A DNA stretch of 64,000 bases from Kondoa subrosea (taxonomy: Eukaryota), in contig BCIN01000001.1 in NCBI GenBank assembly GCA_039545335.1, forward strand, positions 3,289,136-3,353,135. Direction: 5' to 3'. The translations under genes and the position numbers were made by a program. Below are positions 3,019 to 13,864 of the stretch, piece by piece. Numbering within the stretch: the first letter of the stretch is position 1; each line of letters begins with the position of its first letter. A model generated the notes under the pieces. It was given only the letters and a program-made list of their open reading frames with translations. It was not told where the DNA came from and did no database searches.

Positions 3019-4012
3019 TTTGAACTTGGGTAAGCAAGTTGAAATGGCTTTAAAATATGAGGGAGCGAAAAGGTAGCAAGAAAGAGGAGCGTCGATTTAT
3101 CAGAAGAAGAAATGACCAGGCATTAATCGACTGTCGAATAAGGTTTACGGATTCTTGATTTCGTAACATATTAAAGTGCAGCAATAAAACAAAAAGTGGT
3201 GTCAGCGCCTCGTATTCAGCGGAGAATCAGGCGTATGTTTCACGGCGACAAAAGCGATTGAAAGACAGGAAGGATCCATTGTTTGCATGTCGTCTGCTAA
3301 AGCTGCCAGTACGAGTATTGAAACGGCGCTTGATCAATAGCTGAGGTCCTGGAGCAAGTGGATTGCTGTATAAGACACAGGTATCAAGCATTGAGAGCAG
3401 GATTGAGAGGCATTCGAATTGGGATTCTAATGAGAAATTTGGCGTTTCAACGACTTGTTGAGCGATAGATTGGGACGGAGAGACTATCTTGAGTATGATC
3501 TGAGCTGGTCTGGAGCGCTTGAGACTGGTAAAGTGGTTGATAGCTGACAACACTCGAAATATCAGATAACACGGCATCTGTGCACAGGAGGAGAGATCTC
3601 TCGACCAGCTTTCGTAATCTCCTCACTAGCATCCTTCTGCAGTGCACGACCGGAATCTTGTATCATTCACATTGTGTTAATGTGATTCCATTGCTGGCAT
3701 GAGCTAAAGACTTGTCAAATACCGGTTACGCCATGCCTCGAATGCGTCTCGTCTATGGCACAGCTCTGTCTGGCAGGCAGCAATTAGAGATGTACTTATC
3801 CTCGTACGCGAGACGCGTATTACGTAAGACGCGTTGGGAAAGCAAAAAAAAAAAGATTTCTTATGTTCGGAGGCTAGGCGAATCGATTATTTGGACGCGA
3901 CCTGATGTTCTGACAGAGCATGAAACGGATAGCATGGATGCCTGATGATTTCCAGGCTCTATCCGAAGCAAAAAAAAGCTTGTGGTACGCATATGATGCC
4001 TGCGACTCGGGC

Positions 4013-4016
4013 AAAA
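4013..4016 (-). terminator. putative Pol III T-tract terminator of tRNA-Ile
   Basis: GTTTCCTTTT immediately follows the discriminator base; a longer T run lies at about 3969-3977. Confidence 0.45.
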
Positions 4017-4022
4017 GGAAAC

Positions 4023-4186
4023 TGAACAGTACCAGGGTTGAACTGGTGACCTTCGCATTACGAATAGGATGATCTATTAGTACGACGCTCTAACCAACTG
4101 ACTAGAGAGAAGAAGGAAGGAGGAAGGAGGAGAAATTTATTTTCTTTTCTTTTTTTCTTTAAGGAAGGAACTCACGCTAACCGTCC
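4023..4186 (-). tRNA. tRNA-Ile(AAT) with two introns: 74-nt GT-AG segment in the D-stem (4102-4175) and 16-nt canonical anticodon-loop intron (4059-4074)
   Basis: Exons 4186-4176 GGACGGTTAGC, 4101-4075 TCAGTTGGTTAGAGCGTCGTACTAATA and 4058-4023 ATGCGAAGGTCACCAGTTCAACCCTGGTACTGTTCA. Stems: acceptor GGACGGT/ACTGTTC, D GCTC/GAGC, anticodon TCGTA/TGCGA, T ACCAG/CTGGT with loop TTCAACC. Anticodon AAT at 4078-4076; discriminator A. Confidence 0.9.
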
Positions 4187-4216
4187 TTGGATGAATTGAG
4201 GCAGTTTCCGATTGAC

Positions 4217-4225
4217 TTATATAAA
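4217..4225 (-). promoter_or_regulatory. TATA box upstream of tRNA-Ile
   Basis: TTTATATAA on the minus strand, 31-39 nt upstream of tRNA G1. Confidence 0.6.
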
Positions 4226-5082
4226 GGACAGAAAAATCACGGACGCCTGCCGTTGATTGTTTGTAGGGCAGCTTCTCCAAAATCTCACATCGAGATCCTC
4301 GGTTCTCGTTCATCGTCGGCTGTACCTGACTGCAGAGCCAATCCCAGATCTTCTTCATCACACTATCGTCGAGAATCTCGTTCACCATTCACCGTTGACT
4401 TGCCCGAGACATCAGCTATTCGTTTGGAATCGCAAGACTCAGTGACCAGTATGATGAGTTGCTCTGCATCTTGAATGTGGAAGAGATCGAAAGCCTTGAC
4501 ACAGAGATATGGACGAGAGAGAAGTAAGATCGACGTTTTCGCATTAAGCAATGCCATCCATGTGTTAAACCAGGTACCTGCGATGCCTGGGTTCAGTGAA
4601 GCGAATCATGAGAGGTTCAATATGTATCGTAAAGCAAGGCACGTCGCAGTCTTTGCTCTCTTCGACTATACCGGGAAAGGCAGAAGAAGAAGAGAGAATA
4701 GCTGTAGAGACACAGCATGCGACCGATGTTCGCTACAGGCAGAGGACAAGCTGCATGCCATTCGAAAGCTAAAGTAAAGTAGATCTCAATGAGTAGACTC
4801 TCAGACAAAGGTGTCGAGTCAATGATCAAACAAATGGATTGAGATAAGAATCGACTTCGCTTTCTTCGGTCGACAATCACAAGATGGTAGGTAGGCTGCT
4901 GCCTCTGCTCTGGCACTAATTCGTCGAAAATGAGGTGTAAAATTGTAGTGTAGAATCGACGTTGCTGGAAGACAAAGGTATCTGTACATAAATGCATGAA
5001 TGCCAGCTGCACGAGAGGAAAGCCACCACAGTACACAGATTTGTCTCATTCACATCATACTCCCAAATGTGATTCTTCTACT

Positions 5083-6639
5083 TCAATTGCGTTGAAGCCA
5101 ACGTCCAATGCCGAATTTCAGTGAGGAAGCAGATGAGCTCATTTCTTGATTTAAGGGAAAGCGCTGAGAAGGGGGATCCGCAGCTGTAAGGTGAACGCCT
5201 CGGTGATACGTGTCTTGATCATCGGATCCCTGTCCAAGTTGACCGCTGTCTCCAGACCTCATTGGCTGATTTACGTCGGCCTGTGATCCGTATGATTGAG
5301 GGTGGTTTGCGCCTATTGAATCTGCAGACTGAGTCGGTCTGCCGACATTGCCTACTGGAATCTTTGATGCCGCAATGTTAGACGGAGAAGGCGTTGCGAC
5401 CGACGAAGTCTCGTCATCTGTATCGCTTGAAGTATCGCTGTCGCCATTAGCTCCAAGCCATACTGCTGGCCCAGGATATTTGAAGTCTGGACTAATTTCT
5501 GGAGTGACCTGCAAAAACGATAAACGATGCTACATGGCAGAGTTGAAAGACGAACTTTATAGCTGGAGAAGATGCCCGTTTCCTGAGAAAACTTGTCTGA
5601 AGTAGTTCCTGAAGGTAAAGGGACATTGCCATTGCCTTGTACATCCAATTGCGTGCAGAAGACAAAGAGCTGCGGTGTATCAAAGTGAATTGCTCTGAGA
5701 CAGTATCATTAGTACAGGGAGCATGACCTCTTTCTTGGACTCACACTAGCTCGTTTCTCCACTATTGATCATAGTTAGCTATAGCAACCAGGTGCACGCA
5801 ACAACCAACAACGTATTGACCAGCTCTTAAGTTCTGGGGTACTTTGAGTGTCCAAGCTGATCCATCTTCCAACATCTTAGCTAGAGCCCATAGGCCCGGC
5901 TGTCCTTCTGCAGGATGTTTCTCTCCTTTACCGACCAGCAACTTGTGCAGTTTTGGATCCATAACTGTTTGAGTGTCAAAGGTAGCTTCCTGTATTTTGG
6001 TCCAGCCAGCATTCGTTACATCGGCGGAAGCTAGAGAAGCCAATCAGCTGAGTGACGGTCTTCCTAAAGGTTTACTTACAGCAGTCGTTGTTCTCGCATT
6101 CAGCCAACCAGTCGGAAATTGGCCCAATACCGTGAGTATAAGGCATGAAGTGACCAGCTGTGTCGGGCTCTGGGCCTTTTACTCCAGGAGGATATTGAGT
6201 ATAGCTATACAGCTCGGGAGTAGGTCCAGATATATACAGTGTAACGGAGTCGCCGGCTACGAGAATCGATGAGCGTGCTTCAATCGGTGTGAAGCTTGGT
6301 AGACTTACCAGCTACTTTGACATTCTCTGGTGCAGGCTCGGCAGCCGATTGACCACAACTCATCTTACTGTGAAAAGTGTATTGAGTACAAGCTCCGAAC
6401 AATGCATATCAGGCTGACCTAGCATCACCGAAATCTGGATATTCGATCAAGGCTTGTCCTTTTGACGGATCAGTCTGCCAAGCAGCTCGTATAGCTGTGT
6501 TCGTGTTTGACTGCCAGGGTAAACGAGCTTCATTTATGCTCCCGTCCGATTTGAGAATAGTGCGATTGGGCCAGCCATGAGCTGCTACATGGGCCATCGC
6601 TGTAGCTAACAGTAAAGGCAGCGACAATACAGCCTTCAT
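5083..6639 (-). CDS. secreted lytic polysaccharide monooxygenase, AA9 (GH61)-like, with disordered C-terminal tail
   Basis: Signal peptide followed by His1 (HGW). Spliced exons give THGIGPISDWLAEC, WTKIQE, VPQNLRAGQYVWRNELVAIH, PQLFVFCTQL and YPGPAVW. Confidence 0.85.
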
Positions 6640-8383: not shown

Positions 8384-10363
8384 TCAAGCTTCATACATCT
8401 CCACCGACTGCTTCCTTTCTTCACTCGAACCCGCACTTGCTGTGCCAGCTTTCCCAGCTTCCAACTGCTTGACCCTACTTTCCAAAAACGAATTGATTAA
8501 TTCTAACTCCGCTATCCGAGTTCGGAGCAAGTCCACTTCGCTCATTTCTCCCTCTACAGTAGTAGAAGGTCTTTCAGAGGAAGATCGACCATGTTTGCCC
8601 AAAATTGATTCTTCCCTCAGATTTCCCCGCATGTTTGAGTAAGCATCCACTCCTCTACCTCTAGAAGTCGATGCTCTATAAAAAGGCTGTTGCGCTTTAT
8701 GCAAAGAAGAAGGAGGATGAGGCGGCATAGTTCCAGCTGGGAAAGAAGTCAGTTCTTGGTTCCAAGCAGGTGAAGGTGAATTCGATCTGGACCCTGATCT
8801 GGAAGCGATTCTGACAGCTTCGAGAGAATGGTCCAGGATACTTTGTGTATCGCCTCCTGCAAGAGCTGGTTTACGTGTAACGCTTCGTCCACGTCGCTCC
8901 TGGGGAGAGTCTATTGTTGAACGAAGCGCTTCAATAGCGGGAATAGTTTGATCTTCAGCTACGGAAGCTAAGACTGGGGAACGGGATGCAACTTGAGGGA
9001 GAGAATGTTGAAAATAAGGTGAGTGCATGTTATTTTTCCCTTCGGAAGAATCTGAAGATCCAGAATGAGAAGTATTGGGACGATCGTTAAAGGGAGGGGA
9101 GATGTTATTCGACCTATGTTGATCAAAATTGGGAGCTTGAGGTGGAAAGGAAGCTTGCGAAGGGTCTTGATTTAGCTGTACGTCTTCCCCTGCTCCTTGA
9201 ATTGGCGGTAGCATTATTCTGTCTCGTTGTCTGCCTCGAGCTAAATCTGCTTGATAAGGACCTTCATCTTCTCGTAAATGCTGTGTAAGACTGCTCAGAG
9301 ATGGTAAAACAAGACGTTGATTGTTCACTGCTTCCATGTTTGGAGACTGTCGTGGACTTGATCGAGATGAACTAGCTTGCTGCTGCTGTTGCTGTTGCTG
9401 CGAAGAGGGTGGGAAGGAAGGATAATTTTGATCCCTCGGGATAAAGTTGGAGTAGTAATTGGCATAAGGAGAATAAGAATGTTGTAAACCCGACGGGTAC
9501 TGTGGGTGATGAAGCTGATGAGGATATGCTGGCTGACTTGGCGATCTACCGGCCATAGAGTTTCGCGAAGGAGGTAATTCTAACCTTGCATCAACAGATG
9601 CGCTTCGACTGTTCGTGCCAGAAGCAGGTGATCTTTTTGCGGCATCATTTTGCATTGTAGAAGCAGCAAACTGAGCAGCCCAAGGATTATTAGAAGGTGA
9701 CTGAAAGTTCCGTTGATGTTGTTGTGCAGCAAAGGCAGCCAAATGATCCAGCTGAGCTTGATTTCGCTGACCATTCATCATTTGGTTCGGGTCGGTTCTC
9801 TGTCTTTTGCCATTCGCTCTCCCTTCCACACTTTCTCCTTCCTCCCAGCTCATATCTACATCCGAGCCGCTCGTCCTTCTGTCATGGCTTGTTGCATCTG
9901 GTCCACCGTTTTCCATGTTGGCAAGGGTGACAGCAGCAATTCGAGCAGCTTTATCTTTCGCTTTGCCTTTACTTCTGTTCCGATGCTTGATAACATCTGT
10001 TTTGAGCGAAACAGGTCGGGCGAAGCCCTTGGGACCCGGGCATCAGATGCTGATGTATTGCATTCATAGGTCCAACGGCTTACCTTCTTTTTCAAGTGTA
10101 AGGAGCACGCATTACACAGCACAGATCCATTCTCACTTCTTCGCCAAAGAGGTGTAGTCTATGATCAAAGCACATTTGAGCTTTCACTCAACTTCAAGTT
10201 TCCGCTTGAAACTGACCTGGGTTCCACAATTTGAGCATATAGGCTGATTTGGATCACTGGCTACTGCTGGTATTGAATCTTGAGAAGATGAACCAGTGTA
10301 TGGTACAGGAGGTGGAGGAGAGATGCTTTCAGGCGTAGTGGTATTTGATTTATCAGCTGCCAT
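8384..10363 (-). CDS. GATA zinc-finger transcription factor with C-terminal coiled coil
   Basis: Spliced CSNCGTQ|TTPLWRRSENGSVLCNACSL (C-x2-C-x17-C-x2-C); large Q/S/P-rich terminal exon ending LRTRIAELELINSFLESRVKQLE. Confidence 0.9.
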
Positions 10364-12346: not shown

Positions 12347-13864
12347 ATGTCCGACGTCAAGCCAAAGCAGAGCAGAGGCACCTCCTATAGACCGCCTAAT
12401 GGAATCACAGACGAGACTCCTTCGCACTCGTCGCAATTCACTATTGGCAAGCTGGATGCTGGAATTGCAGTCTTGATTGGCGAAGCTTCTCATTTGATTG
12501 AATTTCCTTCTCTACTACTACCACCTGGATCTGTACCTGGCTCGATAGTGTCTATATCTTGTTAGTGACTTCAGGCGAGAGATAACAGGGTCTTGTGCTG
12601 AAGTCTTGTCGTCAACGAAACAGGCCAACGGGACTACAAAGCAGAAGAAGCAGTGCGCAACTCTTTCTGGACATTGCAAGAATCTATTCTATCTACTTTT
12701 GGCTCGTCAACGCCTGAACCACCTCAACTCAAACTTCGCAATGTTACCCAAACCTCTGTCACGCTGGAATGGGCTCCATTGGTCTTGGCCAGCTCGAAGT
12801 TGGTCTCCTTGACTATTTGGAGGAACAATCAGCGTCTAGCAGCTATCCCTAATCCTTCCACGAATTTGTCGACCAAAATCTCAGGTCTAGAACTAGACGC
12901 GCCCTTCAGCTTCCATCTCGTGCTCAAGACTAGCGCAGGCACCTATTCTTCCAATATAGTCCGCACCAAAACCCATACTATACAAAATACTTCTGGTATT
13001 CGAGTTTGTTTTGGCACGGTGAATCCACCTTCAGTATTAGCAACCTTGAAAGAATCAATCAAAGAAATGCAAGCGGATTACTCAGATACTATGCAAATCG
13101 ATACGACCCATTTCGTTTGTACTGCCCCGGGCTCATCAAGAGAATCGCCTCAAGCAGGTCAAATGTATCAAAGAGCTCTACAAATGTCTATCCCTACCGT
13201 CTTACCTTCTTGGATTGAAGCTTGCAAGCAAGAAAAGAAAATGGTTCCAATCTCAAAACATTACTTAGGTTCTTCTACATCTTCACCTGTCTTACCTTCT
13301 TCTTCTTCTACTACACAATTACCTAGATCAAATTCACCAAATCCGGCGACAGTACAGACTACACCTACTATAGCTGTTCAAGAACCCGAATCCCCCTCTG
13401 ATTCAACACCCGCAGCTAAAGTTCATCCTCAAGAAGTTGATCCACCTGCTAAAATAGAGAAAGAAATAAAGGATGAACCCATTGAAGCACCTTTACAAGC
13501 AACGCATAACGAGATCACCAAAAATCCAGACGAAGTAGTAGATATGGAAGATGTAGTTCATGCAGCTAAAGAGACAGAGGAACCAAAAGGGGAACCAGAA
13601 GTAGCAATAGAACAGCAAGAGGAGGAGGTAAAGAAGGATGCAATTGCGATCGCTGGCGAGAAAGAAGTTCAGAAGACGGACGAAGCGCCTACAAAAGCTG
13701 AAGTTCAAGTAGAACCAGCTGTTGCTGTAACTCATCAGCCTGAGGTGGAAGTGGATGAAGCGAGTGAAGAGAAACAGGCTGACGAGGTCAAAGAGACAAA
13801 GGATGGCGTTGATGACGAAGGTTCGATATTAGATCCGGATGAGATGCAGGACGTCAAGTTGTAA
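12347..13864 (+). CDS. CHS5: exomer subunit Chs5 (N-terminal dimerisation, FN3, BRCT, acidic tail)
   Basis: [10 protein letters not shown]...[31 protein letters not shown]; one intron. Confidence 0.92.

Follow-up and report, generated by a model that had tools for sequence, protein, structure and literature searches.

We report a tRNA gene of unusual structure in a 64,000-nucleotide (nt) stretch of contig BCIN01000001.1 of Kondoa subrosea (positions 3,289,136 to 3,353,135 of the forward strand), which we call the window and whose first letter is position 1 in all coordinates below. The gene, a tRNA-Ile(AAU) gene, can be read directly from the window sequence at 4186-4023 on the minus strand and is interrupted by two inserts, one in the D-arm and one in the anticodon loop. 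We think it likely that the gene works and that its two introns differ in kind, the one in the D-arm being of the spliceosomal type. Such a D-arm GT-AG intron is probably a kind of tRNA intron that has not been described so far. The interrupted tRNA-Ile gene is itself a confirmed observation and lies far beyond what chance would produce. An initial annotation of the window had already proposed a spliceosome-type intron in a working tRNA gene, and this proposal now appears supported by a second locus in the same genome, by the intron position and branch site in two metagenome loci (L015 and L017), and by compensatory base changes between these genes.

Gene structure and detection

The features of the gene and its immediate flanks are as follows.

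4176-4186, minus strand: exon 1, tRNA nucleotides 1-11 (5' strand of the acceptor stem, U8, A9 and the first two D-stem bases), from base pairing and alignment
4102-4175, minus strand: D-arm intron of 74 nt, putatively of the spliceosomal GT-AG type, with a GTGAGT donor, an A-rich stretch, a pyrimidine tract of about 32 nt and a TAG acceptor
4075-4101, minus strand: exon 2, tRNA nucleotides 12-37 (remaining D-arm, 5' strand of the anticodon stem and anticodon AAT), from ARAGORN, alignment and pair count
4059-4074, minus strand: 16-nt intron at the standard 37/38 site, of the tRNA-endonuclease type, with its length from ARAGORN and its placement from the alignment with L015 and L017
4023-4058, minus strand: exon 3, tRNA nucleotides 38-73 (T-arm, intact B-box region at about 4034-4044 and discriminator A73), from ARAGORN, alignment and pair count
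4217-4223, minus strand: TATA-like sequence TATATAA (-37 to -31 relative to tRNA nucleotide 1), putative promoter element
4013-4016, minus strand: TTTT run at +7 to +10 past A73, candidate polymerase III terminator, from the sequence
3970-3977, minus strand: run of eight T further downstream of A73, from the sequence

The short first exon fits the rest of the gene closely. With the distal part of the gene, it makes all seven acceptor pairs (7/7) as well as pairs 10-25 and 11-24 of the D-stem, and the removal of 4102-4175 restores both the acceptor stem and the D-stem, as the initial annotation had stated and as both the ARAGORN cloverleaf and our pair count show. The bases on either side prevent the cut from sliding, so the edges of the 74-nt insert are fixed and the excised piece is exactly GT...AG. 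The 16-nt intron contains TATT, which is complementary to AATA of the anticodon loop. Complementarity between the intron and the anticodon loop is usual in eukaryotic pre-tRNAs.

It had been predicted that standard tRNA finders would miss a gene of this form, and they do. ARAGORN reports no tRNA gene in the unmodified window and Rfam gives no match at the gathering score across its whole length; when weak matches are allowed, Rfam shows a partial tRNA match at 4029-4094 with 13.7 bits. A second tRNA elsewhere in the window is found by neither program. After in silico deletion of 4102-4175, ARAGORN returns a 74-nt cloverleaf with a 16-nt intron in the anticodon loop. To place this result against chance, 56,138 deletions of the form GT...AG with a length of 35-150 nt were made on both strands of the window. 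Two of them gave an ARAGORN tRNA and both lie at this locus, namely the proposed intron and a variant whose AG is found four bases further on. When the acceptor was kept fixed and all starts 15-330 nt upstream were tried, whatever their letters, the GTGAGT start alone yielded a tRNA at the window locus.

Interrupted tRNA-Ile genes in other organisms

We scanned metagenome contigs with a 19-letter pattern consisting of the acceptor YAG and the first 16 nt of exon 2, which gave 18 matching loci. Two of these 18, L015 and L017, carry an upstream 11-nt first exon and an insert at 11/12, of 54 nt and 50 nt. Their inserts start with GTACGT, contain a CTAAC that ends 11 nt before the intron end, and finish with CAG. 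The YAG alone was part of the search pattern in these two loci; the first exon, the GTACGT and the CTAAC were not. As they stand, ARAGORN finds nothing in either locus, and once the insert is removed it reports a tRNA-Ile(aat) in both, with an intron of 13 or 31 nt after the anticodon.

The exons of L015 and L017 are identical (74/74), and the window gene shares 61 of 74 positions with them. Within the D-arm intron, L015 and L017 are nearly identical over 8 nt at the 5' end and over roughly 20 nt at the 3' end, while the two loci differ in the middle of this intron, in their 37/38 introns and in most of their flanks. Conserved ends around a variable middle are the pattern to be expected if only the splice signals were under selection. 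A TTAA...TATA stretch about 45 nt upstream of the gene is common to L015 (285-338) and L017 (1-54), which also show some likeness far downstream and may represent one locus in two related species. No clear coding frame was seen in the flanks of either.

The two loci also bear on the identity of the window tRNA. The deletion of 4102-4175 had been expected to yield a tRNA-Ile with anticodon AAT, and this held for the cloverleaf but not for the label, as ARAGORN names the window gene Thr(cgt) and puts its 16-nt intron at 32/33. Because the 3' end of the 16-nt intron repeats the 5' strand of the anticodon stem (window 4059-4106, minus strand), the intron can be placed at either 32/33 or 37/38. In L015 and L017, ARAGORN sets the intron after the anticodon, and the anticodon loop and intron start of the window gene match these two genes column for column. 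On the basis of this alignment we place the intron at 37/38, in agreement with the initial annotation, read the anticodon as AAT, and assign the window gene to tRNA-Ile(AAU). The Thr(cgt) call with an intron at 32/33 is judged to be a misplacement by ARAGORN.

Base pairing was assessed with the standard cloverleaf, which we counted on the alignment of the three genes (window, L015 and L017) with the D-arm insert removed. Standard pairs are present in 63 of 63 cells (21 pairs in each of three genes), and five pairs have changed on both sides between the window gene and L015/L017. Two of these compensatory pairs, 3-70 and 6-67, span the intron, with one side in the 11-nt first exon and the other at the gene's 3' end. 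As a control, the 3' partners were slid by 1-3 columns, after which 30-53% of the cells were paired and at most one two-sided change was found. This covariation, in one comparison between two lineages, shows that selection has acted to keep the spliced product.

The remaining matches of the pattern are of other kinds. Four of the 18 loci (L002, L004, L006 and L007) are contiguous tRNAs at the pattern match. Here TCAGTTGG comes immediately after the TAG, in genes for tRNA-Lys and tRNA-Val whose D-arm is apparently one base short at its start; three tRNA genes are clustered at L004. ARAGORN found no tRNA in the other 12 of the 18 loci, whether unmodified or with any stretch that ends at the match deleted. 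The contigs of L001, L003 and L013, which are 147-343 kb long, have the same sequence around the pattern match and no tRNA, and are probably a chance match in one organism that was sampled three times. The same pattern has no match in viral contigs. Its single match among genome contigs (L019, in a bacterial metagenome-assembled genome) contains no tRNA according to ARAGORN and is irrelevant here.

A second locus in the same genome

Contigs from two DNA runs of one sample, which is possibly the source of the window itself, were compared with window 3950-4260 at 80% likeness, with the repeat-like stretch 4104-4170 left out of some of the tables. An 81-nt contig spanning 4023-4103 has a depth of 301.6, against 143.9-153.7 for its neighbours, which include contigs of 44-70 kb. 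This shared contig, whose depth is exactly double that of a single copy, reaches 2 nt into the D-arm insert. Over 4074-4186, a 230-nt contig agrees with the window, with no other letters and five gaps, and then has 122 nt unlike the window directly past 4186. A 48-kb contig has its end in 4023-4052 and departs from the window sequence immediately before 4023. The likeness of the two loci ends exactly at the two ends of the mature tRNA. Because of the double depth and of contigs that diverge exactly at the tRNA ends, we conclude that there are two loci with the interrupted gene in this genome. Where the contigs cover them, the exons and the 16-nt intron are identical in both loci. The D-arm insert is 5 nt shorter at the second locus, which has a run of five T 5 nt past A73. 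Among contigs at least 80% alike, none runs from exon 2 into an uninterrupted 5' part, a comparison which more diverged copies would escape.

These data bear on the possibility that the interrupted genes are dead tRNA pseudogenes with an insertion, and that uninterrupted tRNA-Ile(AAU) genes supply the cell. The absence of a branch motif in the window insert, and its length beyond that of the usual introns of the genome, would fit such a pseudogene. On the other hand, the signs of a pseudogene, such as broken stems or an insert whose position or ends are not conserved, are absent from the three genes. The insert occupies the same position in two lineages, every one of the stem cells pairs and five pairs are compensatory, and between L015 and L017 the splice signals, but not the interior of the intron, are conserved. 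Two loci with identical exons and unlike flanks, a TATA element and a terminator in place, the exact doubling of depth in the shared contig and the failure to find a contig leading from exon 2 into an uninterrupted 5' part all argue in the same direction. We therefore regard the pseudogene explanation as very unlikely.

Nature of the D-arm intron

The D-arm insert has a 5' splice site of the form GTRNGT at the exon boundary, which is GTGAGT in the window and GTACGT in L015 and L017, and a 3' splice site of the form YAG, which is TAG in the window and CAG in the other two. A branch site is found in L015 and L017, where the CTAAC lies inside a block conserved between both. The initial annotation had described the GTGAGT donor as having the consensus of the mRNA introns of this genome, and the window agrees with this description: among candidate introns equipped with both a branch site and an acceptor, there are 20 with GTAAGT and 13 with GTGAGT, compared with about 7 each in shuffles, and the lengths of these candidates peak at 45-60 nt. 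The enrichment of the donor appears only among candidates that also have the branch site and the acceptor. Plain hexamer counts in the window are not enriched, with 33 GTGAGT and 41 GTAAGT against about 31 and about 34 in shuffles. For a closer comparison, 21 candidates of the form GTRAGT...CTRAY...YAG were collected from both strands of the window. They are 40-57 nt long and have mostly CTGAT, and also CTAAT and CTGAC, 8-15 nt before the YAG; CTRAY is present in all 21 by construction. Examples, all on the minus strand, are 5695-5744, 6031-6079 and 2188-2227. The pyrimidine tract that had been noted before the TAG is indeed present in the window insert, and none is found in the window's uniform candidate mRNA introns.

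As RNA, the inserts are unstructured, with minimum free energies of -2.3, 0 and -2.3 kcal/mol for the window, L015 and L017, and the window insert folds less well than 196 of 200 shuffles. This matters for the question whether the insert might be removed by a route other than the spliceosome. Such a route has a possible precedent in C. merolae, for which nuclear tRNA genes interrupted in the D-arm have been described (PMC3728597, PMC9602550). A bulge-helix-bulge was rejected, since a central helix of 4 bp is possible in neither L015 nor L017, in either topology. The window insert offers two 4-bp helix options, neither of which is conserved, and the minimum-energy folds are without a bulge-helix-bulge. 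The GT donor consensus, the CTAAC and the YAG would have no role in that route, to which can be added that, according to a review (PMC10485636), the fungal-type endonuclease acts only at 37/38. Together with the lack of structure in the inserts, these points leave hardly any chance for removal by another route in our judgement.

Other intron classes were also considered. Self-splicing introns of groups I and II are ruled out by the size of the inserts (50-74 nt), by their folding energies of 0 to -2.3 kcal/mol and by the lack of an Rfam intron match. A U12-type intron was rejected, as the donor is not of the ATATCC or GTATCC type and as 55 nt separate the TCCTTAAA-like stretch from the acceptor. 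With an introner in mind, further copies of the insert were sought in the 64-kb window; there are none, only low-complexity matches of 10-15 nt, and the single other copy seen is the one in the duplicate tRNA gene.

On the plus strand, 4107-4159, which is antisense to the D-arm insert, can form a hairpin of purines and pyrimidines with G-U pairs; the sense RNA is unfolded. The microRNA-like Rfam matches at this place (mir-1252 with 25.5 bits, compared with a gathering score of 70) were treated as chance products of purine/pyrimidine complementarity.

Transcription unit and surroundings

TATATAA occurs seven times on the two strands of the 64-kb window, and the chance of a placement at -45 to -23 is 0.09% per position. 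Downstream, runs of four to five T are found 5-13 nt past A73 in all four copies of the gene (window, second locus, L015 and L017); the chance of finding a run of four or more T within 17 nt is 4.2% at a random position of the window. The B-box region is intact and the A box is divided by the D-arm intron. Together these features suggest that transcription begins shortly before exon 1 and stops shortly past A73, and polymerase III is most likely the transcribing enzyme. We had also considered whether an avoidance of T-runs inside the inserts could be a sign of polymerase III. This is uninformative, as shuffled inserts are without TTTT at frequencies of 0.55, 0.98 and 0.95; TTTT is also absent from 20 of the 21 candidate mRNA introns, and its absence adds nothing for polymerase III.

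A different possibility is that the same spliceosomal intron is carried by a polymerase II precursor, either as a capped transcript of its own or by read-through from an upstream gene on the same strand, from which RNase P and RNase Z would release the tRNA. Polymerase II, too, can make use of a TATA element at -37, and the likely neighbouring genes are on the same strand. From established knowledge, a cap would aid the splicing of a very short first exon, and a split A box would be irrelevant to polymerase II. Speaking for polymerase III instead are the T-runs past A73, with a chance of about 4% per copy on the background of the window, and the intact B-box region. We consider a polymerase II precursor rather unlikely.

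The DNA of the window reads as fungal and probably basidiomycete. The tRNA gene lies in about 1 kb without long frames. The flanking stretches 880-2615 and 5355-6079 each contain several candidate minus-strand introns, and the frames in these stretches have no Pfam match, no PDB match and no homologue among longer proteins. Further away in the window, a CHS5-like frame with fn3_2 and BRCT domains is found at 12602-13864 on the plus strand, and its nearest Atlas clusters are mostly from Basidiomycota, which is a lead only. A frame with an Asd-4-like domain is found at 8384-10042 on the minus strand.

Discussion

From the structure of the gene and its relatives we infer a maturation pathway in which the excision of the insert, the spliceosome as its agent, the order of the steps and the polymerase are all proposals. 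Polymerase III, positioned by the TATA element at -37, would begin its transcript a few bases before exon 1 and would end it at the T-run past A73. The 74-nt U2-type GT-AG intron between nucleotides 11 and 12 would then be removed from the precursor by the spliceosome. For recognition, the window intron would rely, if on anything, on its long pyrimidine tract and on the adenosines about 35 nt upstream of the acceptor. Spliceosomal excision would join the 11-nt exon to the remainder of the tRNA and let the D-stem and the tRNA core form, and the usual tRNA enzymes would act only after this removal. The 16-nt intron at 37/38 would be taken out by the tRNA splicing endonuclease and ligase, and the other steps of this stage would be those of RNase P and RNase Z, CCA addition and the editing of A34 to inosine.

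Several observations weigh against a spliceosomal intron in a working gene. The window insert (4102-4175) contains no CTRAY, which had been pointed out as a caveat and is plain from the sequence, and the adenosines closest to the acceptor are about 35 nt upstream of it. With 74 nt it is also longer than the candidate mRNA introns of the window at 40-57 nt. The missing branch motif and the greater length of the window insert are the main internal weakness of our interpretation. Under the established rules for polymerase III, a split A box should disturb the choice of the start site, and 11 nt plus a short leader make a very small first exon for the spliceosome to work with. As the exons of L015 and L017 are identical, the comparison is one of two lineages only. 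Uninterrupted tRNA-Ile(AAU) genes may exist elsewhere in the genome, given that the contig comparison reaches only sequences of at least 80% likeness. Finally, ARAGORN is lenient towards arbitrary joins at some of the other loci, where it accepted 81 arbitrary starts at L007, 61 at L004 and 6 at L006. Because of this leniency, we gave the base-pair counts more weight than the ARAGORN results.

We found no report of a spliceosomal intron in a nuclear tRNA gene in the literature searched, which covered few subscription journals. In its available part, a 2023 review has the four-subunit eukaryotic tRNA endonuclease removing introns only at 37/38, and mentions non-canonical tRNA intron positions only for red algae and archaea (PMC10485636). 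Another 2023 tRNA review contrasts tRNA splicing with the spliceosome, and the passages available from it contain no such case (PMC10275265). Spliceosomal introns are recorded in the U1, U2, U5 and U6 small nuclear RNA (snRNA) genes and in rRNA genes in the available part of a further review, and tRNA genes are not listed there (PMC5855946). The picture given by textbooks and by these reviews is one of nuclear tRNA introns at 37/38, handled by endonuclease and ligase, and of spliceosomal introns in snRNA, U3 and some rRNA genes as a curiosity (PMC10275265, PMC10485636, PMC5855946).

One of these curiosities is the U6 snRNA gene, transcribed by polymerase III, which in Schizosaccharomyces pombe and other fungi has an intron of the mRNA type, as the same review describes (PMC5855946). 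Like S. pombe U6, the gene described here encodes a small stable non-coding RNA and has an upstream TATA element, a T-run terminator and a short GT-AG intron with a branch site, the latter in L015 and L017 only. Polymerase III signals of the U6 kind are present at the sequence level in the window, with TATATAA at -37 to -31 and TTTT at +7 to +10. The work on the mRNA-type intron of U6 is reportedly that of Tani and Ohshima (1989, 1991). U6 sits at the catalytic centre of the spliceosome, and reverse splicing is the usual explanation for its introns. Unlike S. pombe U6, the present gene encodes a tRNA, which is away from this catalytic centre, and it has a split A box, an 11-nt first exon and a second intron of the tRNA-endonuclease type.

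Two other systems invite comparison. The nuclear tRNA genes of C. merolae share with our gene the combination of a D-arm intron and an anticodon-loop intron, and are likewise missed by standard eukaryotic finders. Their D-arm introns are said to be short, with flanks that resemble a bulge-helix-bulge, and to be cut by the tRNA endonuclease. In contrast, there is no conserved bulge-helix-bulge in the genes studied here, whose inserts bear GT and AG signals and, in L015 and L017, a branch site. Group II introns interrupt organellar tRNA genes, as for example plastid trnG-UCC in the D-stem. The intron proposed here would be similar to that of trnG-UCC in forming a lariat and in lying in the D-stem of a tRNA, but organellar group II introns are structured ribozymes of several hundred nucleotides, whereas our inserts are nuclear, unstructured and 50-74 nt long.

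If our interpretation is correct, two splicing systems would be linked on one 74-nt RNA, and the supply of an essential tRNA would depend on the spliceosome. The gene would offer a test of the minimum first exon that the spliceosome can use and of its action on an uncapped polymerase III transcript, and it would indicate that introns can become established in RNAs remote from the spliceosome's active site. It would also reveal a blind spot of tRNA finders, with the consequence that such genomes would wrongly appear to be without tRNA-Ile(AAU) in standard annotation. One could go further and suppose that the D-arm intron is old, and obligatory in every tRNA-Ile(AAU) gene of this fungus and of at least one other lineage. 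We put this forward as a tentative idea, which we would sooner doubt than believe. [quoted passage not shown] The matching position in two lineages would make these genes a concrete system in which to study the gain and retention of introns in non-coding genes.

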